Source: Clostridia bacterium
GTDB lineage: Bacteria; Bacillota; Clostridia; Oscillospirales; CAG-272
Length of the DNA stretch: 57,284 nucleotides
Assembly: GCA_017935225.1 (NCBI GenBank)
Contig: JAGBIA010000015.1
Location: 1 to 57,284, forward strand
Reading direction: 5' to 3'
Below are positions 45,958 to 56,852 of the stretch, one piece after another; positions within the stretch are counted from its first letter, which is position 1, and every line of letters begins with the position of its first letter. The position numbers and the translations under genes were made by a program. The notes beneath the pieces are model-generated. The model was not told the origin of the DNA. It saw nothing but the letters and a program-made list of their open reading frames with translations, and ran no database searches.

Positions 45958-46158
45958 ATGAACATCATAAAATACCGTGTAAACGACGTTATTGAACTGA
46001 AAAAAGAGCATCCCTGCGGCTCGAAGCAATTCAAGGTGCTTCGCGTGGGCAGTGTTATGAGGATAGTCTGCCTTGGTTGCTCGAGAGATATGGATATAGA
46101 CAGACTCAAGCTTGAAAAGGCTACGAAGAAAATAATTTTTACGGAGGAAGAAAAATGA
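45958..46158 (+). CDS. DUF951 family small protein
   Basis: MNIIKYRVNDVIELKKEHPCGSKQFKVLRVGSVMRIVCLGCSRD fits the DUF951 pattern (HPCGS ... C..C). The track ORF begins at TTG 45946. Confidence 0.75.
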   Translation: MNIIKYRVNDVIELKKEHPCGSKQFKVLRVGSVMRIVCLGCSRDMDIDRLKLEKATKKIIFTEEEK

Positions 46159-49070
46159 ACGATATAAATACCGCCACTCCCATAGTAAAAGAAAAGAAGC
46201 GCGGCTTTCACCCCAAGAGAGCCTTGAAGTTGCTTCAGCATGCTCTCTACACCTCCCCTGCTGGATATCTCGTGTTCTGCTTTCTCATTCCTATAGTGAT
46301 AAGCTTCTGCGTATATCTGACGCGTGCGCTTCACCCGTTCGGCGAGGGTACGCCGCTCGTGCTTGACCTCAACGCACAGTACGCGTATTTCTTTGAGGGA
46401 CTTCGTAATCTCGTATACGGCGATGCGACGAGCTTTCTCTATTCCTTCTCGCGCTCGCTCGGCGGCGAGTTTATGGGTATGTACGCATATTATCTTGCAA
46501 GCCCGCTCTCTTATGTAGTCGCTCTCTTCCCACAGGACAGAATGCAAGAGGCGATCCTCACCATCATCCTTATCAAGACAGGACTTACCGGTCTTACGTT
46601 TGGATACTATCTCCACAAGCACACTAAGGTACGCAACCGCGTGACGATAATCACCTTCTCGGTGATGTACGCGCTCTCGGCGTACGCGGTATGTCAGCAG
46701 AGCAACACGATGTGGATAGACGCGCTCGTATGGTTACCTCTTATGACGCTCGGAATTGAGCAGCTCATTCTCAACCGCCGCTACAAGCTCTACACCGTAT
46801 CTCTTGCGTTTATCCTTATCTCCAACTACTACATCGGCTATATGATGTGCATATTTGCCGTTCTCTATTTCCTCTACTACTATTTCTCAAAGCCCGCCAC
46901 CGAGATCAATCCGCGCGGCGAGAAGCTTCACTTTGTCCGTGCAGGTACGAGATTTGCGATATTCTCGATCCTTGCCGCCGCAATAGGCGCATTTATGCTC
47001 TACGCGGCATACTACTCGCTCGGATTTGGTAAAAGTGACTTCTCTACTCCGAGCTGGGCTCTCAGAGGCAACTTTGATATTCTTGACTTCCTCGTCAAGC
47101 TTCTCCCCGGCTCGCACGACACATACGAGCCCTCAGGTCTTCCGATAGTCTACTGCGGACTCTTGACGGTCATTCTTGTGCCGATATATTTCACTTCAAA
47201 GAAGATAAGTTCTCGTGAGAAGGTAGCGTCTGCCGCTATCCTTGCGGTATTTCTTATCTCTTTTATCGTAAATCCGATTGACCTTATCTGGCACGGATTC
47301 TCAACACCCAACTGGCTCAACGCGCGCTACAGCTTCCTTTTCTCATTTATGTTGCTCGTGATCGCCTACAAGGCGTTCGGAAATCTGCGCGAGGTCAGTG
47401 AGAAGGCTCTGCTTGGGATCTGCGCGTTTATCATCCTCTTTGTTGCTGTCGCACAAAAGCAGGAATTTGAGAGCTACATCAACTCGGACAGCAAGCTTCT
47501 CACCTTCGGCTGTATCTGGTTCTCGATCTTCTTTACTGTAGCACTTCTCGTGCTTCTCTGCCTGAACGTACGCGTCAAGCGTCCCAAGTCCAGAAATGCA
47601 GTCTCGCTCGTGCTTGCCGCTGTCGTCTGCCTTGAGATATTCTGCAACGGCGCAGTGTCTTTCTACACTATAAACGAGGACGTGCACTTCACGAGATATT
47701 CGAGCTATCAGGACTTTCTGCGCGATATTCGCCCCGTTGTCGAGGATCTGCGTGAGTACGACAAGGGATTCTACCGTGCGGAGAAGCTCCACCACAGACA
47801 GAAAAACGACAATTTTGCGCTCGCGCTCAGAGGTGTTTCGAACTCTACCTCGACGCTCAACGCTGAAGCGATCGAGCTTCTCAATCAGCTCGGATACACC
47901 GCACGCGCGCATCTCACTCAATATAACGGCGGAACTCCACTCACCGATTCCCTGCTCGGCATCAGGTACGTTATAGACAAGTCGAGCGCAACTAAGCTTA
48001 AGGGTATCTATCCTCCCGTCGAGGACATTGAGGACGAGCTTTACACGGTTTACAGAAATCCGCACGCGCTCTCGCTCGCTTACGGCGTTGAGGACACGCT
48101 CAAGGATTACGATATGACAAGCGAGTCCTACGTATTCCGACGCTACAACTCACTTATGGCGGCTATGCTCGGCGAAGAAGAGCCCATAAAGATCTTCCGT
48201 GCAGTCACCGAGAAGATGAGAACGGCTCCCGGAAACTGCAAGGAAACCAAGCTTACCACATCTCTCAAGTATAATTCCCCCGAGACCGCGTCGGGTAACT
48301 TCTCCTTCGTTTTCACTATCCCAAAGACCGGCTTGTATTATTTCTACCCCGATGCTATGAACTCTACCGACACCTGTCAGATAAGGATCAACAACGGCAC
48401 GAAGATATCCTATCTTGAAAAGGATACGGATAACGTTCTCACGCTCGGACATTTCGATGAGGGCGACGAGCTTCGCATAACCTTCTATATCTCCGAGGAC
48501 GACAGCATAACCTTTGACACGAGCGAGCCTTACCTCTGGTACTTCGACACCGAGGCTTACGAGAGCACGATGGCGAGAATGGAGGTTGCTCCTCAGTTTA
48601 TCATTGACGATGGGTCGACCGACGATAACATATTCGGCAGCATCAAGACCGCCAAGAGCGAGCAGATGATCCTTACGAGCATTCCCTACGACGAGGGCTG
48701 GAACGTCTATATCGACGGGGAGAAGGTCGAGATCTATAAAACTATGGGCGCACTTATGGCATTTGACATAGCAGATGCGGGCGAGCACACGCTTGAGCTT
48801 GAGTATATGCCGAAGCTCTATAAGCCTATGCTTTGCATCTCAATCGCCTCGATCATAATTTTCATTCTTATCTGCGCGATCGATCTTGTGCTGAAGAAAA
48901 CTCTTCTCAAGGCACGCAGAGTAGAAACCTATGACGATATCTGGGTGCTTGAAGACAACGATTACATCGTCAGCAAGCGACTTGACGAGCCCAAGCTCGA
49001 GCCTTTGAGCAAAGCTGCCGATGAGAATAGCACAGACGACCAAAACGATTCAACAACTACGGAGGAATAA
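46155..49070 (+). CDS. YfhO family membrane protein (GT-C fold glycosyltransferase-like)
   Basis: 971 aa with about 13 N-terminal TM helices, a large extracytoplasmic domain and a terminal TM helix. This is the architecture of YfhO proteins. Confidence 0.8.
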   Translation: MNDINTATPIVKEKKRGFHPKRALKLLQHALYTSPAGYLVFCFLIPIVISFCVYLTRALHPFGEGTPLVLDLNAQYAYFFEGLRNLVYGDATSFLYSFSRSLGGEFMGMYAYYLASPLSYVVALFPQDRMQEAILTIILIKTGLTGLTFGYYLHKHTKVRNRVTIITFSVMYALSAYAVCQQSNTMWIDALVWLPLMTLGIEQLILNRRYKLYTVSLAFILISNYYIGYMMCIFAVLYFLYYYFSKPATEINPRGEKLHFVRAGTRFAIFSILAAAIGAFMLYAAYYSLGFGKSDFSTPSWALRGNFDILDFLVKLLPGSHDTYEPSGLPIVYCGLLTVILVPIYFTSKKISSREKVASAAILAVFLISFIVNPIDLIWHGFSTPNWLNARYSFLFSFMLLVIAYKAFGNLREVSEKALLGICAFIILFVAVAQKQEFESYINSDSKLLTFGCIWFSIFFTVALLVLLCLNVRVKRPKSRNAVSLVLAAVVCLEIFCNGAVSFYTINEDVHFTRYSSYQDFLRDIRPVVEDLREYDKGFYRAEKLHHRQKNDNFALALRGVSNSTSTLNAEAIELLNQLGYTARAHLTQYNGGTPLTDSLLGIRYVIDKSSATKLKGIYPPVEDIEDELYTVYRNPHALSLAYGVEDTLKDYDMTSESYVFRRYNSLMAAMLGEEEPIKIFRAVTEKMRTAPGNCKETKLTTSLKYNSPETASGNFSFVFTIPKTGLYYFYPDAMNSTDTCQIRINNGTKISYLEKDTDNVLTLGHFDEGDELRITFYISEDDSITFDTSEPYLWYFDTEAYESTMARMEVAPQFIIDDGSTDDNIFGSIKTAKSEQMILTSIPYDEGWNVYIDGEKVEIYKTMGALMAFDIADAGEHTLELEYMPKLYKPMLCISIASIIIFILICAIDLVLKKTLLKARRVETYDDIWVLEDNDYIVSKRLDEPKLEPLSKAADENSTDDQNDSTTTEE

Positions 49071-49073
49071 ACA

Positions 49074-49703
49074 ATGTTTTACTATATAAACGGAAAGCTC
49101 GCGCATCTTGACCCCACCTTTGCGGTGCTTGACGTTGGCGGAGTTGGCTACAAGCTGACTATCTCGGGAAGCACACATTCCGCTATGCCGCCTCACCTGA
49201 GTGTAAGTGAAGCACCTACCGTCAAGCTCTTCACTTACCTTGCGGTACGAGAGGACGACATCGAGCTTTTCGGATTTGCAAGTGAGGAGGAACTCTCATC
49301 CTTCAAGATGCTTATCAGCGTATCGGGTGTAGGTCCTAAAGCGGCTCTCTCGATACTCACGCAGATGACACCGCAGAAGCTTGCTATCGCTATCTGCACC
49401 GACGACAAAAAGGCGATCGCCAAGGCAAACGGCATAGGTCCGAAGACCGCGGCGCGCATCATTCTTGAGTTCAAGGACAAGCTGCAGAAGGAAGCTATTG
49501 CAGAAGCCGATCTCTCCTCTTCCGCTGACGACGAGCTTGTGGCAGCTATCGGCGGATCGAGCAAGAAACGCGACGCAGAGGATGCGCTCGCGGTGCTTGG
49601 ATACTCGAGAAGCGAGGCTTCTGCCGCTCTGCGCAGCATTGACATCGACAATCTTGAGCTTGACGAGATAATCCGCCTCGCTCTCAAGAAGCTTATGAGA
49701 TAA
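49074..49703 (+). CDS. ruvA: Holliday junction DNA helicase RuvA
   Basis: 209 aa; MFYYINGKL...VGGVGYKL, HhH motifs (ISVSGVGPKAALSIL; ANGIGPKTAARI). Confidence 0.95.
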   Translation: MFYYINGKLAHLDPTFAVLDVGGVGYKLTISGSTHSAMPPHLSVSEAPTVKLFTYLAVREDDIELFGFASEEELSSFKMLISVSGVGPKAALSILTQMTPQKLAIAICTDDKKAIAKANGIGPKTAARIILEFKDKLQKEAIAEADLSSSADDELVAAIGGSSKKRDAEDALAVLGYSRSEASAALRSIDIDNLELDEIIRLALKKLMR

Positions 49704-49715
49704 GGAGAGTGTTCT

Positions 49716-50789
49716 ATGTTTGAAAACGAAGATTTCGATTTTGAAAACCGAATAGTCACCACCTCCTACACCCGTGAGGACAGCGACGTTGACACCTCCC
49801 TGCGCCCGAAGACACTTGACGATTACATCGGTCAGGAGAAGGCGAAGGAGAACCTCAAGATCTATATTGAGGCGGCGAAGATGCGTGGCGAGAGCCTTGA
49901 CCACGTTCTGCTCTACGGCCCTCCCGGACTCGGTAAGACCACTCTTTCGAATATCATCGCAACCGAGATGGGAGTCAACATCCGCGTCACATCCGGTCCT
50001 GCGATCGAAAAGCAGGGCGACCTCGCGGCACTTCTGACCAATCTTGCCGAGGGCGACGTGCTCTTTATCGACGAGATCCACCGTCTCTCGCGCTCGGTCG
50101 AGGAGATACTCTATCCCGCGATGGAGGACAACGCGCTCGACATCATCATCGGCAAAGGTCCGTCTGCAAGAAGCATCCGTATAGACCTGCCACACTTTAC
50201 GCTTATCGGTGCGACAACGCGCGCAGGTCAGCTCACGACTCCCTTGCGCGACCGATTTGGCGTTATGCTCAAACTCGAGCTTTACACCGCCGAGGAGCTT
50301 ACGACAATAGTTATGCGAAGCGCGGGAATTTTAGGCTTTGACATCACGCCCGACGGCGCGTACGAGATCGCCTCAAGATCGCGCGGAACGCCCCGTGTGG
50401 CTAACCGTCTGCTCAAGCGCGTGCGTGACTTCGCACAGGTCAGCGGCAAGAACGCGATAGATTCGCAGATCGCGAATTTCGCGCTCCAGAGACTTGAGAT
50501 CGACGCGCTCGGACTTGACAACACCGACAGAAAGATGATGGAGACCATCATAAAATTCTACGGCGGCGGTCCTGTTGGACTTGAGACGCTTGCGGCGACT
50601 GTCGGAGAGGAAGCTATCACACTTGAGGACGTTTACGAGCCGTATCTGTTGCAGATCGGATTCCTTTCGCGCACGCCTCGCGGAAGATGCGTAACGCGCC
50701 TCGCTTACGAGCACCTCGGACTTCCCTATCAAACCTTTGCGACCCCGAAGCCCTCGGAGCAGATCGACATTTTTGACGGCGATCAGTAA
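49716..50789 (+). CDS. ruvB: Holliday junction DNA helicase RuvB
   Basis: 357 aa; [14 protein letters not shown], Walker [10 protein letters not shown], Walker B FIDEIHRL. Confidence 0.97.
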
Positions 50790-50797
50790 GGAGAAAT

Positions 50798-51526
50798 ATG
50801 TACGGTCTTGGCACTCTCATAAATACAGCCGCCATAGTACTTGGCGGCATACTCGGTCTTCTCTTTGGCAAGCTCATCAAGCAAAGGCATCAGGACTCGC
50901 TGACGATGGCGTGCGGAATTTCTGTGCTCTTCATCGGCACGGCGGGCGCGCTTGAGGGCATTATGTCGCTCGGGGCTGACGGAAAGCTCACGTCGGGCAG
51001 ATCGATGCTTATCGTCGGATGTCTCGCGCTTGGCGCACTTGTCGGCGAGCTGATAAATATTGAAGGCTGGTTCGAACGCTTCGGCGCGTGGCTCAAAAAA
51101 AAGAGCGGAAGCTCGAACGACAACAAGTTCATTGACGGATTTGTGACAGCTTCATTCACCGTCTGTATCGGTGCTATGGCGATAGTCGGCGCGATAAACG
51201 ACGGCATTTACGGCGATATCTCAATACTCGTCACAAAATCAATACTCGACTTTATCATCATTATGGTGATGGCAGGAAGTATGGGCAAGGGCTGCATCTT
51301 CTCTGCTATTCCCGTGGCAATACTCCAGGGCGGTGTTACCGCGCTTTCCTGGGTCATCCGTCCGCTGATGACCGAAGCCGCGCTCGGCAACCTCTCGCTT
51401 ATAGGCTCTATACTTATCTTCTGCGTCGGACTCAATCTCGTCTGGGGCAAAAAAGTTAAGGTCGCCAACCTGCTCCCTGCGATAATCTTCGCAGTAGCCG
51501 CGGCATTTTTGCCGATTTCGCTCTAA
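50798..51526 (+). CDS. DUF554 family membrane protein
   Basis: 242 aa; the GTLINTAAIVLGGILG start and repeated glycine-rich TM helices are typical of DUF554 (YdfK-like). Confidence 0.8.
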   Translation: MYGLGTLINTAAIVLGGILGLLFGKLIKQRHQDSLTMACGISVLFIGTAGALEGIMSLGADGKLTSGRSMLIVGCLALGALVGELINIEGWFERFGAWLKKKSGSSNDNKFIDGFVTASFTVCIGAMAIVGAINDGIYGDISILVTKSILDFIIIMVMAGSMGKGCIFSAIPVAILQGGVTALSWVIRPLMTEAALGNLSLIGSILIFCVGLNLVWGKKVKVANLLPAIIFAVAAAFLPISL

Positions 51527-51565
51527 AAATTCTATTATCTCTGCATCGTAGGCAAAGAAACATCG

Positions 51566-51600
51566 AGCACCACCAATCCTCTTTGGTGGTGCTATTTTAT
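51566..51600 (+). terminator. Rho-independent terminator
   Basis: AGCACCACCAA-TCCTCT-TTGGTGGTGCT followed by ATTTTAT. Confidence 0.75.
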
Positions 51601-51651
51601 AAAGTCCGAAAATATAACACAAACCGATAATTTTTCTCTCAAAATGCGTTA

Positions 51652-51680
51652 TTGATTTTATAGTTCATTTGCTGTATAAT
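51652..51680 (+). promoter_or_regulatory. Promoter of the XRE-family regulator gene
   Basis: TTGATT, 17 nt, TATAAT. Confidence 0.65.
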
Positions 51681-51699
51681 ATAGATGTCGACAAACAGA

Positions 51700-51715
51700 T
51701 TGCTTTGCAAAGCAA
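51700..51715. promoter_or_regulatory. Perfect 16-bp palindrome in the regulator's leader (candidate auto-operator)
   Basis: TTGCTTTGCAAAGCAA, read directly. Lies 20 nt downstream of the -10 and 24 nt upstream of the ATG. Confidence 0.6.
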
Positions 51716-51738
51716 GTAATTTTGTACGGAGGAAAAAA

Positions 51739-52905
51739 ATGAAACTTGCAATTGGAGAAAATATCCGCAATTTCCGAAAGAAAAATGACTTGACGCAGGA
51801 GGCACTTGCCGATCGCTTGGGCGTAACATATCAATCGATCAGCCGCTGGGAGAACGGCACGACCTATCCCGATCTTGAACTGATCCCTGCAATTGCCGAG
51901 GTGCTTGCCGTGACTGTTGACGAGCTTCTCGGAATGCCGCAGATTGAAAAAGAAAAGCGTGCAATTGCAGCCTTTGACGAGCTTCGCCGCGAGTGTATAA
52001 AAACCGATTATGATGCCGACAAGATCGTAGATCTTCTTCGCGATGTACGAAGAAATTATCTTGATAGCGACTCTGCTTGGCGTCCGTGGTGCGAAGGAAA
52101 CGATTTGGCTTTCCGCGATCCCAAAATACTTCCCGAGGTGCGCTTGTTAGCGGAAGCGTATCTTGAGAGAAATCCCATGTTCACTCACACAATTAAAACG
52201 ATGGCTAACGTTGAAGATGAGGAGCATTTAGAGGATTTTTTGAAGAAATACTCGACAGCATTTGATTGTTCAGAACGCGCCTTAATGTATGAAAGATATT
52301 TGCGTCGCTATGATTCAGAACGGTTCGAACCGGAAAGAAGATATCAACTGTATCACGCATTTTACAAATTACTTTGTCCGCGTTATTTGCTAAAGTTGGA
52401 TGAAAGTGACTGTAATAATGAAGATGCAAATGATTTTATGGAAAGTATACTGTGCATTATTCGCAGTGCTGCTACTGATGACCGTCCGGATATATGGGTA
52501 GTTGACAGAATTGAGCTTGCACTGAAAGCGGCGATGAAGTTTACGTCTTGTGGCAAACTCGATGAAGCGCTCGCGCGAATAGCTTCTGCTGTTAAGCTAC
52601 TGGAAGAAACTATGAAAATCACAGAAAAGGTCACTTTGCCCACTTCCTGCCGTTTTCTTGACGGAATGGAGTGGACGGCAGCAGAACATTGGCACAGAGA
52701 AAACAACGATCCCGATGCTTTAGAAGAACGAATGATTTTTATTACTACAAAGATGAACGGCATTATGACGGGTTCCTGCTTGAACCCAAGTGAACAATTA
52801 TCCGCTTTGCAAAGAAAAGAATTTGATCCTCTTCGCGATCATCCCGAATTTGTAAAGCTTTGCGAACGCGTAAAAGCGTTAATTGTTACTAAGCAGGACT
52901 TGTGA
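51739..52905 (+). CDS. XRE-family HTH transcriptional regulator with ~320-aa helical (TPR-like) C-terminal domain
   Basis: Start set at MKLAIGENIRNFRKKNDLTQEALADRLGVTYQSISRWENG (GGAGG RBS). The C-terminal portion is helix-rich, an architecture like RNPP/Rgg-type sensors. Confidence 0.75.
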   Translation: MKLAIGENIRNFRKKNDLTQEALADRLGVTYQSISRWENGTTYPDLELIPAIAEVLAVTVDELLGMPQIEKEKRAIAAFDELRRECIKTDYDADKIVDLLRDVRRNYLDSDSAWRPWCEGNDLAFRDPKILPEVRLLAEAYLERNPMFTHTIKTMANVEDEEHLEDFLKKYSTAFDCSERALMYERYLRRYDSERFEPERRYQLYHAFYKLLCPRYLLKLDESDCNNEDANDFMESILCIIRSAATDDRPDIWVVDRIELALKAAMKFTSCGKLDEALARIASAVKLLEETMKITEKVTLPTSCRFLDGMEWTAAEHWHRENNDPDALEERMIFITTKMNGIMTGSCLNPSEQLSALQRKEFDPLRDHPEFVKLCERVKALIVTKQDL

Positions 52906-52974
52906 TCCTCATATTTTCTGAATATCAAAAGCCACCACGGTTTTACCGATAAATCTTTAAATAAAAAACAAACG

Positions 52975-53003
52975 AAAAGCCGACGAAAATCCGTCGGCTT
53001 TTT
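52975..53003. terminator. Bidirectional terminator between convergent genes
   Basis: AAAA-GCCGACG-AAAATC-CGTCGGC-TTTTT. Confidence 0.8.
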
Positions 53004-53015
53004 ATGTTATAAAGT

Positions 53016-53423
53016 TTAAAGTTCAAGAACGGGTATTTCTGCGATGATAGCATCTTTTACTTTGTTCAATGCTTCTATCGCTTCTTCTTGGTTATTGTAA
53101 TAGGCGATCTCTGTCCAACATTGTGTGCTCGTCTGAACCATCAAAGACTTGCCATCAACACGTAATCCCCCATAACAGATTAACATTTTGTTCTTATTTG
53201 GACTTAGCAATTTTAATCTTTGTTTCGGCTTCACAAGCGTTCCGTCCGACAGAACAAATTCAAACCTAGAAAGGCACTCAAGCAAAGCGTCTTCAATAGC
53301 ATCCTGTACGGAACAGCTGACAGTGCTTTCAATTTGATCAACAATCACATCCTCTACTATTTCATCAATGTGAGCATACAATTCTTCCATAAAGTTGTCA
53401 TCAAAGTTCTTGTTCTCTTCCAT
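53016..53423 (-). CDS. Hypothetical protein (135 aa), no recognisable motif
   Basis: ORF trimmed to MEENKNFDD (GAGGTG RBS). Acidic N-terminal half. Sits downstream of the RAYT-like gene in an AT-richer segment. Confidence 0.45.
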   Translation of the reverse strand: MEENKNFDDNFMEELYAHIDEIVEDVIVDQIESTVSCSVQDAIEDALLECLSRFEFVLSDGTLVKPKQRLKLLSPNKNKMLICYGGLRVDGKSLMVQTSTQCWTEIAYYNNQEEAIEALNKVKDAIIAEIPVLEL

Positions 53424-53470
53424 ATAGCACCTCAAATAAATATTCACTGTAAAAAAGTTTTTACAAAATT

Positions 53471-54001
53471 CTATTCTGCAATATAAAAGCAATCGTATTG
53501 CCAAGTTATAGGATTATTGTACATGTATTTTGAAATTTTCTCGTAATCATCACGTCCACGTATGATATGGTCGTGAAAAGATCTTTGCCAAACCGCAATT
53601 CCAATCTTTTTAGACACATCCCTCTTAAACTGCCCAACAACTGTTGAAATTGATTTTTTGTCTGTAGGGGAGGATATTATCCTCCCGTCCTGTGAAGTTA
53701 TAAATAATATCAGATGAACATGGTTTGGCATAATCACATATTGCAATAATTCAATATGTGAATAACATTTAGAAATAGCCACAATAGAATCATTAACGAT
53801 TTTACCATACAAAGATAGTCTTACACTATCTGACGGGAGGATAATATCCTCCCCTACAAAATCAGGTTGTTCCTTTGCCCAAAAAATATTTTTTCTATCT
53901 TTAGTGCATATCGTAACGAAATAAGCTCCGCAGGAACTATAATCATATTGATCTAAGCGGTTCTTCTTCCTTCTCGGAAAATCTTTTTGCTGTTCCATCA
54001 T
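53471..54001 (-). CDS. REP-associated tyrosine transposase-like (IS200/Y1 HUH superfamily, COG1943-type) protein
   Basis: N-terminal RLDQYDYSSCGAYFVTICTKDR, HUH motif in YVIMPNHVHLILF, and C-terminal WQRSFHDHIIR ... ISKYMYNNPITW with a candidate catalytic Tyr. Start at ATG 54001 or 53998 (AGAGGGA RBS). Confidence 0.8.
   Translation of the reverse strand: MMEQQKDFPRRKKNRLDQYDYSSCGAYFVTICTKDRKNIFWAKEQPDFVGEDIILPSDSVRLSLYGKIVNDSIVAISKCYSHIELLQYVIMPNHVHLILFITSQDGRIISSPTDKKSISTVVGQFKRDVSKKIGIAVWQRSFHDHIIRGRDDYEKISKYMYNNPITWQYDCFYIAE
53663..53689 (+). repeat. REP-like unit 1: (T)GTAG + 19-nt perfect palindrome, inside the RAYT-like CDS
   Basis: TGTAGGGGAGGATATTATCCTCCCGTC. GGGAGGATA-T-TATCCTCCC is self-complementary. 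Encodes QDGRIISSPT on the minus strand. Confidence 0.95.
53832..53858 (-). repeat. REP-like unit 2: exact reverse complement of unit 1, inside the same CDS
   Basis: GACGGGAGGATAATATCCTCCCCTACA is the reverse complement of 53663-53689 (27/27). Encodes VGEDIILPS. Confidence 0.95.
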
Positions 54002-54048
54002 AATCCCTCTTGCATAAATCAATACGAACAAAGATAGTCTTTTTTATT

Positions 54049-54705
54049 TTACTTCGTCATCTTCTCCTGCTTTACCTTATGGTCGATGACGTGGCGGGAG
54101 GCGAGCTCGTTTCTGATGTCGTCAAGCGAGATGCCCATTTCTATCATAAGCACCATAACGTGATAAACGAGGTCGGATATTTCGTATATCGTCTCTGCTT
54201 TATCGTCAGCCTTGCCTGCGATGATTACCTCGGTGCATTCCTCACCGACCTTTTTGAGAATTTTGTCAATTCCCTTTTCAAAAAGATAGGTGGTGTAAGA
54301 GCCTTCCTTCTTTTCAAGCTTTCTGCCCTCGATGACCTTCATGAGAGCTTCAAGTGAAAACTCGGCAGCCTCGCCCTCGTAAACGGGATAATTGAAGCAG
54401 GAATCAGTACCGAGATGGCAAGCGGGGCCGTCCTTGTTTACGACTACCGTGAGCGCATCCTTGTCGCAATCTGCGGTGATGCTTACGATATGCTGTTTAT
54501 TTCCCGAAGTTGCTCCCTTTCTCCAAAGCTCCTGACGTGAGCGCGACCAGAAGCAAGTAGTGCCTTCGTTCATGCTTATCTCAAGGCTCTCTCTGTTCAT
54601 ATATGCAACGGTCAGCACCTTTTTGCTGACTGCATCTACTACTACTGCGGGGATAAGTCCCTTTTCGTCAAATTTCAGTTCGTCTATTTTTATAAATTCT
54701 GCCAT
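54049..54705 (-). CDS. hisI: Bifunctional phosphoribosyl-AMP cyclohydrolase / phosphoribosyl-ATP diphosphatase HisIE
   Basis: 218 aa; LIPAVVVD...VLTVAYMN...[17 protein letters not shown]..., C-terminal MazG-like EECTEVIIA...EISDLVYH. Confidence 0.95.
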
Positions 54706-54717
54706 TGTTTACTCCTT

Positions 54718-55476
54718 TTAAATACGCACGTTTATATCCGCCGCTCTGAGCGTTTGCTTGAGGTGCGATATATCCACCTCTCCGAAGTGGAAGATAGATG
54801 CCGCAAGTCCTGCGTCAACCTTAGGTAACGACTTGAAGAGAGTGATAAAATCCTCTTCCTTGCCAGCACCGCCCGAAGCGATGACAGGCACGTTTACTAC
54901 GTTGCAGACCGCCTCAAGCATTTCAAGATCAAAGCCGCGCTTCACTACGTCGGTATCTATACTGTTTACAACTATCTCGCCCGCGCCGTTTGAAACGCAA
55001 CGCTTTATCCAGGAGATAGCCTCCATACCCGTATCCTCTCTGCCGCCTTTGGCAAAGACGCGGAATTCTCCGCCTACACGCTTTACGTCAACCGAGAGAA
55101 CTACGCACTGGTCGCCATACTTCTTTGCCGCCTCAAGCACGAGATCGGGATTTCTTATAGCGCCAGAATTGACGCTTACCTTATCAGCGCCGCATTTAAG
55201 CACACGGTCAAAATCCTCGACCGTGTTTATTCCACCGCCTACTGTGAGTGGAATAAAGACCTTTGAAGCCGCTTCGGTGAGGATGTCGGTAAATAATGCT
55301 CTGCCCTCGGCTGATGCCGTTATATCGTAAAATACGAGCTCGTCAGCGCCGCAGCTACTGTAAAACTGCGCGAGGCTGACGGGTGAGGACACGTCGGCAA
55401 GTCCTAAAAAATTAACTCCCTTTACCACGCGCCCATCCTTGACGTCGAGGCAAGGAATTATTCTTTTGGTTATCAC
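54718..55476 (-). CDS. hisF: Imidazole glycerol phosphate synthase cyclase subunit HisF
   Basis: GTG start at 55476 (GGAGG RBS 8 nt upstream) gives (M)ITKRIIPCLDVKDGRVVKG. The ATG-initiated track ORF would overlap hisA by 50 nt. Confidence 0.95.
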   Translation of the reverse strand: MITKRIIPCLDVKDGRVVKGVNFLGLADVSSPVSLAQFYSSCGADELVFYDITASAEGRALFTDILTEAASKVFIPLTVGGGINTVEDFDRVLKCGADKVSVNSGAIRNPDLVLEAAKKYGDQCVVLSVDVKRVGGEFRVFAKGGREDTGMEAISWIKRCVSNGAGEIVVNSIDTDVVKRGFDLEMLEAVCNVVNVPVIASGGAGKEEDFITLFKSLPKVDAGLAASIFHFGEVDISHLKQTLRAADINVRI

Positions 55477-55477
55477 G

Positions 55478-56218
55478 TCAGTTTCCTCCGTTTTGCGCTG
55501 AGATAAAATCGGCAAGCTTGATAGCATCCGAGAGATCTATCGCGCCCGTATATATCGCCTTACCGACGATCGCGCCGAAAAGTCCCATATTTGAAAGCAC
55601 GGTGATGTCCTCCATTGAGGAAACGCCGCCCGAGGCGATGATATTAAGCGAGAACTCGTCGTAAAGCTCCCGATAAAGCTCACGGTTAGTGCCCGACATC
55701 ATTCCGTCCTTGGAAATATCGGTGCAGATGATAGTTTTTACGCCGAGATCCTCGAGTTTCTTACAAAACTCCTTGCAGGAAAGAGCGGATACTTCAAGCC
55801 AACCCTTGATAGCCACAAAGCCGTCCTTAATGTCAACTCCGACCACTATCCTCTCGCCGTAAAGTCTTACTGCCTCAGAAAGAAATTCGGGGTCTGTAAC
55901 GGCGGCTGTGCCTATTATCACTCTGTCCACGCCTATGTCTATATATTGCTTTACTCTCTCAAGCGTGCGGATACCTCCGCCTACCTCTACCGAGAGCGAG
56001 GTTCTTTCTGTTATTTTCTTAATGGTTTCAAAATTTGCGGTAGTTCCGTCCTTTGCTCCGTCAAGGTCAACGACGTGCAGGTATTTAGCGCCTGCTCGTT
56101 CAAAGCTCTCGGCAACGGCGGCAGGATCGTCGCTGTAGACCGTGACCTTATTGTAGTCGCCCTTAAGAAGACGTACCGCCTTTCCGCCCAAAAGGTCTAT
56201 TGCGGGTATTATGTTCAT
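55478..56218 (-). CDS. hisA: 1-(5-phosphoribosyl)-5-[(5-phosphoribosylamino)methylideneamino]imidazole-4-carboxamide isomerase HisA
   Basis: 246 aa; MNIIPAIDLLGGKAVRLLKGDY ... GGGIRT ... ASGGVSS. Confidence 0.95.
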   Translation of the reverse strand: MNIIPAIDLLGGKAVRLLKGDYNKVTVYSDDPAAVAESFERAGAKYLHVVDLDGAKDGTTANFETIKKITERTSLSVEVGGGIRTLERVKQYIDIGVDRVIIGTAAVTDPEFLSEAVRLYGERIVVGVDIKDGFVAIKGWLEVSALSCKEFCKKLEDLGVKTIICTDISKDGMMSGTNRELYRELYDEFSLNIIASGGVSSMEDITVLSNMGLFGAIVGKAIYTGAIDLSDAIKLADFISAQNGGN

Positions 56219-56234
56219 TGCTCGATTTTCCTCG

Positions 56235-56852
56235 TTAGTTTATTTCGCAGAATGCCTTAAGTATCGCAAGTCCTACGCGCTCGCTCTTCTCGGGGTGAAA
56301 CTGAACGCCGCAGACGTTGCCGTTTATCACCGCCGCCGTAAGCTCGGCGCCGTATTCTGCCGTCGCTATTACCGATTCGTCGCAATCTGCGCCGTAGTAT
56401 GAATGAACGAAGTAAACGCAGTCACCTTCGCTCAGATACTTGAAGAGCTCGTCCTTTTTCTCTCCAAAATGCAAAGCGTTCCAGCCGATGTGGGGGATCT
56501 TCAGATCTTTGGGAATAACGTCGGAGATAGGTCTGATGCTTCCCTTGATGAGTCCGAGCCCCTCGTGCTCGCCGTATTCGTAGCTCCTCTCAAAGAGCAT
56601 CTGCATACCAAGGCAAATGCCAAGCAGAGCCTTTCCACCGCTTACCTCGCGCTTTATCACCTCGTCAAGTCCACTCTCGCGAAGCTTGCGCGCGGCGTCC
56701 TCAAATGCGCCTACGCCCGGAAGCACGATGCGGTCTGCCGCGGCGATGACCTCGGGATCTGAGGTAACGCAGATGTCCGCGCCTATGCTCTTAAACGAGC
56801 AAGTCAGCGAGAAAAGGTTGCCAACGCCGTAATCTATTATCGCTATCATCAA
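56235..56852 (-). CDS. hisH: Imidazole glycerol phosphate synthase glutamine amidotransferase subunit HisH
   Basis: 205 aa; IAIIDYGVGNLFS, the catalytic GICLGMQ, and a C-terminal FHPEKS. Confidence 0.95.
   Translation of the reverse strand: MMIAIIDYGVGNLFSLTCSFKSIGADICVTSDPEVIAAADRIVLPGVGAFEDAARKLRESGLDEVIKREVSGGKALLGICLGMQMLFERSYEYGEHEGLGLIKGSIRPISDVIPKDLKIPHIGWNALHFGEKKDELFKYLSEGDCVYFVHSYYGADCDESVIATAEYGAELTAAVINGNVCGVQFHPEKSERVGLAILKAFCEIN

Follow-up and report, generated by a model that had tools for sequence, protein, structure and literature searches.

What are two perfect hairpins doing inside the open reading frame (ORF) of a transposase-like gene, and why do they stand on either side of its HUH motif? 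The question is raised by a 57,284-nt stretch of contig JAGBIA010000015.1 from a Clostridia bacterium (hereafter the window), which carries a gene of the kind encoding tyrosine transposases associated with repetitive extragenic palindromic (REP) sequences (RAYTs, also called TnpA-REP). A repeat finder places within this gene a 27-nt inverted repeat with arms at 53663-53689 (TGTAGGGGAGGATATTATCCTCCCGTC) and 53832-53858, 100% complementary and 142 nt apart. Each arm consists of GTAG followed directly by a 19-nt palindrome, GGGAGGATA-W-TATCCTCCC, and the build is that of a REP: a GTAG foot, a 9-bp stem, a 1-nt loop and a trailing G. The exact 27/27 complementarity, this composition, the in-frame position and the bracketing of HUH had been described in an earlier sequence-only reading of the locus, and the repeat finder and the translation confirm that description. 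Our results suggest that the arms are probably two GTAG-type REPs of the enzyme's own family, enclosed as a pair within the reading frame to give an internalised REPtron. At usual rayT loci an inverted REP pair flanks the gene (the REPtron); here such a pair would lie inside the ORF, in two disordered loops, bracketing only the HUH core. The features concerned are the following, with sites numbered in gene order and loop confidence (pLDDT) taken from an AF2 model.

53471-54001, minus strand: RAYT/TnpA-REP-like HUH/Y1 gene, 176 amino acids; start ATG at 54001, stop codon 53471-53473
53832-53858, minus strand: REP site 1, GTAG on the coding strand; core GTAGGGGAGGATATTATCCTCCC(G) at 53835-53857 minus; DNA hairpin -7.7 kcal/mol
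Peptide of REP site 1: V49-P56 (VGEDIILP), in the beta1-alphaA loop; pLDDT <50 at residues 51-57
53690-53831, minus strand: 142-nt spacer encoding alphaA-beta2-beta3 including HUH, the segment missing from relatives' deletion alleles
53714-53722, minus strand: codons of the HUH motif H94-V95-H96, from the translation of the ORF
53663-53689, plus strand: REP site 2, GTAG on the non-coding strand; core at 53664-53686(+); DNA hairpin -7.7 kcal/mol
Peptide of REP site 2: G106-T113 (GRIISSPT), in the beta3(HUH)-alphaC loop; the coding strand reads hairpin+CTAC; pLDDT <50 at 106-115
53668-53686 and 53835-53853: the 19-nt palindromes as direct repeats, 18/19 identical, 167 nt from start to start, which is no multiple of 3
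53525-53527, minus strand: codon of Y159, the predicted catalytic Tyr, in YMYNNP, the Y-x-x-x-N-P motif of class 2 TnpA-Y1 proteins

Read in frame in the minus-strand ORF, the arms give ..DFVGEDIILPSDS.. and ..SQDGRIISSPTDKK.., and the translation of the spacer contains the HUH motif (..YVIMPNHVHLILF.. / ..VIMPNHVHLILF..). With up to 3 mismatches allowed, the palindrome is present at exactly two places in the entire 57,284 nt, as had been judged by eye (chance expectation 0.01; two copies reached in 0/100 shuffles), and no other GTAG followed by a hairpin with a stem of at least 7 was found anywhere in the window. Since each arm is itself palindromic, the two 19-mers are direct as well as inverted repeats, a relation that the sequence-only reading had missed and that bears on which rearrangements can occur. 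An exact 14-nt direct repeat, ACAAAGATAGTCTT, was also observed at 53809-53822 (in the spacer, 9 nt from the REP) and 54028-54041 (27 nt upstream of the start codon). The only internal segments of the AF2 model with pLDDT <50 are residues 51-57, 106-115 and 20-22, and the first two largely coincide with the REP-encoded peptides. Compared with the E. coli TnpA-REP structure 4ER8, both peptides are extra loop sequence, one after beta1 and one after the HUH strand, and in the full alignment homologues without REPs also lack the corresponding loop residues.

A REP family inside and outside its genes

The sequence-only reading had proposed a search for further copies of the palindrome, and such copies were found. 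The exact 19-mer is present in at least 120 metagenome contigs, and the matches listed include 121 copies outside RAYT genes. In 85 of these the GTAG foot stands on exactly one side, the loop base fits the orientation and a G follows the stem, which gives at least 85 GTAG-footed copies outside RAYT genes. Most extragenic copies lie outside long open stretches, and some are paired in inverted orientation about 75 nt apart (L137, L169). Contigs with the 19-mer carry a further 0.19 GTAG hairpins per kb, including variants found inside genes, and in two close relatives (L204 and L207) the same 23-mer flanks the RAYT gene. Judged by the sequences of these copies, the 23-mer with its GTAG foot is a true REP family. 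A density of 0.19 per kb predicts about 11 copies for the remainder of the window, against 0 observed (Poisson about 2e-5, hand calculation); the genome, or at least the region covered by the window, is thus REP-poor. As far as sequence can tell, the association with the REP family holds for the clade, and for the window genome only 57 kb were covered, with no further copy.

We then compared 85 genes, the window gene and 84 homologues with 33-49% identity from 80 species, scanned with one genome per species. The homologues come mostly from metagenome-assembled genomes (MAGs) of Clostridia/Oscillospiraceae, with a few from Chloroflexi, Bacteroidota, Ignavibacteria, Cyanobacteria and others; they are MAG contigs with limited flanks, and the genes are related and phylogenetically non-independent. 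A hairpin-blind search within each gene returned inverted-repeat pairs that recur in the two positions of the window gene and have GTAG outermost. The main arrangements were these.

50/85 genes (about 55 with extra copies included): a single '+' REP ahead of HUH and a single '-' REP behind it
12/85 genes: REPs in the flanks only, commonly as the classical REPtron ('+' upstream, '-' downstream)
6/85 genes: no REP detected

GTAG hairpins are about 18-fold denser inside the genes (2.04 per kb) than outside (0.116 per kb). Perfect inverted repeats of at least 20 nt are present in 27/85 genes, with GTAG in all 27 arms, and 18/27 such arms form a perfect stem of at least 8, compared with 0.17% of shuffled arms. 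This test used arms chosen solely as inverted repeats, which avoids the circularity of a hairpin-anchored alignment; REP lengths differ between classes. Reading frames are also constrained: the site-1 GTAG is in frame 0 in 56/58 REPs. That site 2 is read in many different frames proved only partly true, the CTAC being in frame 1 in 55/64 REPs and in frame 0 in 9/64.

The stem sequences vary between genes (e.g. GGGCGATTC, GGGACGATG, GGAACGCCG, GGCGGGGTG), and they do so together. Over 12 nt, the distance between REP1 and REP2 averages 0.63 within a gene versus 5.9 between genes, and proteins with the same REP type are more alike (61% versus about 45% identity, loops masked). The comparison thus shows, at the level of sequence, that the hairpins co-vary between sites and with the protein. 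Flanking REPs accompany 10/50 genes with an internal pair versus 12/18 genes without any internal REP (Fisher p = 7.5e-4), showing a tendency, in the sequences compared, for internal REPs to replace flanking ones. The two-site bracket was absent from all 11 loci clearly outside Bacillota, whose REPs are confined to site 2, to the part upstream of HUH (L036) or to the flanks, or are missing altogether. A second copy of the spacer was found in no locus, and the idea that the HUH segment and its hairpins form a REPIN-like mobile unit was dropped on that ground.

Several further observations concern the variety of REPs in this set. A 5-kb stretch of one locus (L025:5621-10564) contains three RAYT paralogues. 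In the Anaerolineaceae homologue L079, gene nt 295-334 form a perfect palindrome of 40 nt, GTTGTCGTAGGGGCGACGCATGCGTCGCCCCTACGACAAC; this is a double-foot REP at site 2, read in frame. One REP class of wide occurrence, GTAGGGACAGGCGTCCTCGACTGTCC (L018, L034, L037, L050, L062 and others), has a conserved G.A mismatch at stem position 7, which recalls the bulge required by E. coli TnpA-REP. In Synergistaceae (L048:2460-5500) two or three types of REP alternate in a BIME-like array (bacterial interspersed mosaic element) that comprises at least 13 copies and lies about 5 kb from a RAYT gene without an internal REP. Longer members of the family (210-280 amino acids; P0182, P0187, P0235, P0268, P0316 and others) align in two to three pieces, with breaks at about 57-61 and about 105-117, the two REP loops; their sequences suggest multiple REP insertions or loop expansion at the same sites.

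Nucleotide alignment of homologues, also proposed with the sequence-only reading, revealed suppressed synonymous variation and compensatory stem changes at both sites. Eight relatives (L201-L208; 59-72% amino-acid identity) were codon-aligned with the window gene, and GTA GGG GAG GAT ATY ATC CTC CCG (site 1) and GGG AGG ATR ATA TCC TCC CCT AC (site 2) are essentially invariant, with adjacent codons varying freely. Among the columns with an invariant amino acid, the codon is invariant too in 8/10 within the REPs versus 6/51 elsewhere (Fisher p = 3.7e-5), and the same-codon fraction is 0.91 in REP columns versus 0.54 elsewhere. The synonymous sites are frozen even across species in which the 10 kb to either side of the gene contain no further REP. 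Stems are compensated at site 2 of L203 (GGGAAGAT..ATCTTCCC) and at site 1 of L207 (GGGAGGCT..AGCCTCCC), and L201 and L202 have the same loop change in both copies, at the cost of an Ile-to-Met replacement at site 2; stems of the L203/L207 type and the L201/L202 loop variants are also present as extragenic REPs. In L207 both in-gene variants are repeated just downstream of the gene, and L204 has lost both internal REPs with its ORF kept and has intact REPs of the same family on both sides. The alignment thus shows that, at the DNA level, the arms are maintained as hairpins and not as peptides.

These results bear directly on the most economical objection, namely that the repeat is a coincidence of coding constraints on two conserved peptides, the outcome under which the sequence-only reading would itself have been abandoned. 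VGEDIILP and GRIISSPT are indeed conserved among close homologues. In distant homologues, however, the peptides change freely with the stem while the hairpin and its GTAG foot persist, and the identical 23-mer is dispersed in non-coding DNA. The family-wide covariation and the frozen synonymous sites refute this explanation, and we give it a negligible chance of being correct.

Selection on the hairpins could also act through RNA. Local hairpins, or the 27-bp long-range duplex around the HUH region, could limit expression, either by slowing translation or by exposing the mRNA to RNase III; for the RNA of 53650-53870(-) the minimum-free-energy structure is this long-range duplex (-84.6 kcal/mol, z = -10.9), and low RAYT expression and down-regulation by REP hairpins have been proposed by Di Nocera et al. 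2013 (PMC3733652). Yet the GTAG foot is kept at both sites though it is on the non-transcribed strand at site 2, and extragenic copies have the same foot and tail. Moreover, the two copies differ by 1-5 nt in many genes, which weakens the long duplex and leaves each hairpin intact. A terminator or attenuator role was dropped since no terminator-like signal was found at the REPs, and an Rfam scan of 52500-55000 gave sub-threshold chance matches only, a plant miRNA-precursor model catching the long hairpin. Regulation of the mRNA is, on these grounds, an improbable explanation of the pair.

Alleles that break at the hairpins

The sequence-only reading had offered as an alternative that the inverted repeats mediate inversion of the HUH-encoding segment. 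Alleles were sought in a collection of 5.8 billion proteins, with the predicted 65-amino-acid product of the inverted state and then with P0136; the matches to the inverted product were short relatives only. The following variants were obtained.

L212 and L213 (P0133; with P0171, 4 contigs and 2 sequence variants): ..TTT-GTAGGGGAGGATGATATCCTCCCCTAC-AAG..; REPs merged into a double-foot REP, with the HUH core lost and the C-terminal part shifted out of frame
L209-L211 (three independent samples): REP1 cut in the loop, followed by an rve-family transposase gene
L214 and the third L025 paralogue: in-frame core deletions starting at the REP1 foot
P0148, P0164 and P0150: breaks at REP1 or REP2, judged from protein sequence only
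P0136: 576-bp ENA contig, a singleton; spacer in antisense after the N-terminal part, 59/59 codons compatible

The fusion and frameshift of L212/L213 are as predicted for recombination or slippage between the direct-repeat palindromes, 167 being no multiple of 3. In the third L025 paralogue the whole HUH core is missing in frame, and the junction retains GTAGGGGCG. In L209:469-1768, L210 and L211 the break reads GGGAGGATATTA|TGTCAAG..., and the transposase gene abuts it; only the left junction is seen. By its sequence, the rve-family element at the broken REP appears to be a REP-targeting insertion sequence (IS) with the hairpin loop as its target. P0126, once taken as a candidate inversion, was ruled out by its DNA, in which REP1 is likewise broken in the loop beside an rve-family transposase gene.

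A phase-variable switch, in which recombination of the 27-bp inverted repeats flips the HUH segment and turns the enzyme off, would be favoured by the perfection of the repeats and by the fate of the inverted frame: the translation given in the sequence-only reading (..VGEDIILPS-CEVINNIR-stop) was correct on recomputation, with the stop after 8 codons. P0136 seemed at first to represent such a state, as its residues 39-97 are the codon-aligned antisense of residues 37-95 of P0138. However, at its right end the N-terminal flank returns in antisense (T-N-F being the antisense of K-I-C), in place of the C-terminal flank (VGD...). The contig thus has the N-terminal flank and a REP, followed by spacer, REP and N-terminal flank, all three in antisense. 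We interpret it as a fold-back or a chimera of assembly rather than an inversion allele; it could be an assembly artefact at the inverted repeat or a genuine palindromic rearrangement. Among the assembled homologues and the protein-collection matches there was no clean inversion allele: 85/85 full-length genes are in the ON orientation, and the rearrangements actually observed are deletions and the apparent IS insertion. No recombinase gene is present among the flanking ORFs (window 46155-56852), and inverted REP pairs are normal in REPINs and REPtrons and need no inversion. Inversion is the least supported explanation, and we consider it highly improbable.

The enzyme and its genomic setting

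The product of the gene fits, by sequence, a RAYT/TnpA-REP of the subclass-2.4/group-4 kind. H94, H96 and Y159 are invariant in the homologue alignment (A1), with NHVH at residues 93-96 and the tyrosine motif as Y159-MYN-N163-P164. The HUH and Tyr motifs of 4ER8 align with those of the window protein, and Y159 stands opposite the Tyr of DYIYINP, which we infer to be Y115, the catalytic residue of E. coli TnpA-REP mutated by Corneloup et al. 2021 (PMC8266576). A profile built from 31 homologues matches 4ER8 at E 1.4e-8. The AF2 model (mean pLDDT 75.6, core near 90) has as its best Foldseek match in the PDB 4er8_A (E 6.5e-8, TM 0.57/0.60), which is TnpA-REP bound to a REP hairpin. Subclass 2.4 is marked by NH[IFV]H / WQ / YIxNNP and an extended beta3-alphaC region (Quentin et al. 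2018, Table 1, PMC6006769), and the window protein has NHVH, W138-Q139, YMYNNP (M replacing I) and extra sequence after beta3 relative to 4ER8; the placement was made by motifs and REP type. The family is large, with 6,669 clusters at 50% identity (E <= 1e-10).

The neighbouring genes encode YfhO, RuvA, RuvB, DUF554, an XRE-type regulator, an ORF product of unknown function, HisIE, HisF, HisA and HisH, the Ruv and His proteins having housekeeping functions, and the genomic context of the RAYT gene is different in every one of the close relatives compared. The GC content of the RAYT gene region is 33-35% versus roughly 49% for the surrounding DNA. A low-GC island at about 52800-54050 (33-40% versus a window mean of about 49%) spans the RAYT gene and the adjacent ORF 53016-53504, which has no Pfam match; this composition suggests a recent horizontal acquisition. 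In a relative (L083, JAEIGA010149762.1) the 1.4-kb segment corresponding to window positions 51517-52930, holding an XRE/HTH_3 gene (51685-52905), is missing. Its left flank is 78.5% identical to window 50508-51516 and its right flank 97.5% identical to 52931-55528, an indel with a sharp identity step right beside the RAYT island. In 9/9 annotated loci (the window and L201-L208) the RAYT gene lies directly 3' of a co-oriented host gene or operon, among them hisIE, OTCase (ornithine carbamoyltransferase), obg and trkH, with gaps of 1 to about 340 nt (1-143 nt in 8/9 loci). This position suggests read-through expression, or REP-like insertion at the 3' ends of genes.

An enzyme and its probable repeat in one reading frame

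How could REPs inside the gene serve the enzyme that it encodes? We infer, by analogy with the E. coli and Marinomonas TnpA-REP proteins (PMC3479197, PMC8266576), that the enzyme would recognise the arms as single-stranded DNA hairpins via the 5' GTAG. When the DNA is single-stranded, for example as lagging-strand template, each strand would present one 5'-GTAG hairpin, and a substrate would be available whichever strand is single-stranded. The enzyme would bind the hairpin and could then cut and rejoin the strand, in the manner of TnpA-REP acting on other REPs. Wherever the gene moved, even into a new genome, its recognition sites would go with it, and enzyme and repeat would stay linked; the sites would remain matched to the specificity of the enzyme via purifying selection, inter-copy conversion, or both. 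As direct repeats 167 nt apart, the palindromes could recombine or slip, deleting the catalytic core and leaving one double-foot REP. The suggestion of the sequence-only reading that the gene may carry its own recognition hairpins thus gains comparative support from the dispersed REP family, the DNA conservation and the covariation in 85 genes, with the recognition itself a matter of prediction from sequence. A stronger claim is that the enzyme acts on the internal pair as a functional cis element, making the gene a self-contained and self-limiting REP-RAYT unit that carries seed copies; we regard this as rather unlikely.

The internalised REPtron should be interpreted with some caution, since several of our own results weigh against it. 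The state of L204 indicates that the internal REPs are not essential to the protein. The sequence conservation could stem from REP homogenisation without benefit to the gene. The window contains no extragenic copy in its 57 kb, which leaves the relationship of enzyme and repeat in this genome unproven, and binding and cleavage of the hairpins by the protein are predicted solely by comparison. The association of flanking with internal REPs was obtained from short-flank MAG contigs and non-independent genes. Finally, the protein scores below the cut-offs of both family models, NCBIfam REP_Tyr_transpos (NF047646; 64.8 bits, E 7.6e-18, cut-off 80) and Pfam Y1_Tnp (PF01797; 20.8 bits, gathering score 23); these scores are low because the loop insertions split the profile match, and for the same reason, the splitting of matches by hairpin-encoded loops, such genes are often left unannotated.

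A further reading, essentially that of Quentin et al. 2018, takes the REPs as passive passengers: mobilised REPs landed in the only two loops tolerating extra residues and persist without a role. Both REP peptides are disordered loops in the AF2 model, homologues without REPs do without the loop residues and L204 has an intact ORF with neither REP, all as passengers would predict; internal REPs are also costly, as the deletion and IS-disrupted alleles show, and in the published view they are insertions in a peripheral region with little impact on activity. Against this, position, orientation and frame are conserved over deep divergence (frame 0 in 56/58, frame 1 in 55/64), and insertions that were tolerated but random would not consistently place a + REP ahead of HUH and a - REP behind it. 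The freezing of synonymous sites where no other REP lies within 10 kb on either side, and the complementary distribution of internal and flanking REPs, are likewise not what passengers would predict. We consider this reading possible, though on balance unlikely.

That a RAYT gene carries its own REPs is already published for subclass 2.4. The statement in the sequence-only reading that REPs normally flank rayT and do not sit inside it is out of date, as in-frame REP insertions were described in subclass-2.4 tnpA-REP genes (RAYT group 4) by Quentin, Siguier, Chandler and Fichant (2018, BMC Genomics 19:475, PMC6006769), who list REPs of the GTAGGGGCG type for this subclass in Table S1. The window gene shares with those genes the motif signature (NH[IFV]H, WQ and Y-I-x-N-N-P there; NHVH, WQ and YMYNNP here), GTAG-GGG..CCC-type REPs, double-foot forms, in-frame REPs in the beta3-alphaC loop, a low copy number and a patchy distribution. 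It differs in having a second fixed site in the beta1-alphaA loop, in inverted orientation, so that the HUH core is bracketed; the bracket is conserved across Bacillota/Clostridia loci, usually without flanking REPs, and is under purifying selection at the DNA level. This conserved two-site inverted bracket in Clostridia appears to be undescribed. The literature covered (Quentin 2018; Bertels et al. 2017; Di Nocera 2013; Corneloup 2021; full-text search) mentions no second beta1-alphaA site or inverted HUH bracket, no prevalence in Clostridia, no DNA-level selection on the bracket and no deletion alleles, with the reservation that Figure S10 of Quentin et al. may show single examples.

Other systems resemble the internalised REPtron in part. 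The canonical REPtron of E. coli (TnpA-REP YafM, 4ER8) has the same HUH/Y1 fold, a GTAG 5' of the hairpin, an inverted REP pair and a single-copy chromosomal gene, but the E. coli REPs (REP/BIME) are extragenic with a bulged stem and the enzyme is of subclass 2.2 (DHLH, WE, YIHYNP), whereas the REPs of the window form part of the translated sequence, with perfect stems, and enclose a segment of the gene only. REPINs (Bertels and Rainey 2011, PMC3116915) are likewise inverted REP pairs, as are the extragenic copies of our family spaced about 75 nt apart; they are, however, non-coding, multi-copy and fold as one long hairpin, and here a 142-nt unique and essential coding spacer lies in a unit found once. 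Elements of the IS200/IS605 family (IS608, ISDra2) show a similar order of tetranucleotide-hairpin...hairpin-tetranucleotide around an HUH/Y1 gene on either strand, so that the arms resemble their left and right ends with 5' guides and single-stranded DNA chemistry. Unlike the window pair, the IS ends lie outside tnpA, are not mutual reverse complements and are multi-copy, and TnpA has Y-x-x-x-Q; the window protein has Y-x-x-x-N-P, both hairpins lie within its ORF, the window holds one copy of the unit and the context differs from species to species.

IS1397 and ISKpn1 are insertion sequences that target REPs. ISPpu9 is another such element (PMC8450116), and the in-gene REP of L209-L211, broken in the loop and followed by an rve-family transposase gene, resembles the targets of ISPpu9/ISPpu10, except that the target REP is inside coding sequence and that the IS is judged from one junction only. 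Intragenic invertons, reportedly described by Chanin and co-workers in 2024, similarly have inverted repeats within an ORF that flank a coding segment. Here, in contrast, only the ON orientation is documented, there is no flanking invertase, and the repeats are REP hairpins shared with extragenic copies.

How REP families and RAYTs are matched, spread between genomes and are silenced, and what the cellular role of RAYTs is, are still open questions, and our results add a setting in which they could be approached. A large clade has fixed its predicted recognition hairpins in its own ORF, with selection visible at the DNA level, and the deletion and IS-disrupted alleles break exactly there. If the proposed role is true, each genome newly reached by the gene would receive seed copies of its repeat family; the window gene itself lies in an island of 33-35% GC, with no other REP within 57 kb. 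The hairpins would also be a built-in fuse: loss of the HUH core by excision, whether catalysed by the enzyme or stimulated by the hairpins, would silence the gene, with a double-foot REP left behind as in L212/L213. Holding an enzyme and two putative substrates in 531 bp, this gene may offer a tractable system for the study of cis-action, the co-evolution of specificity and self-inactivation in HUH/Y1 enzymes.

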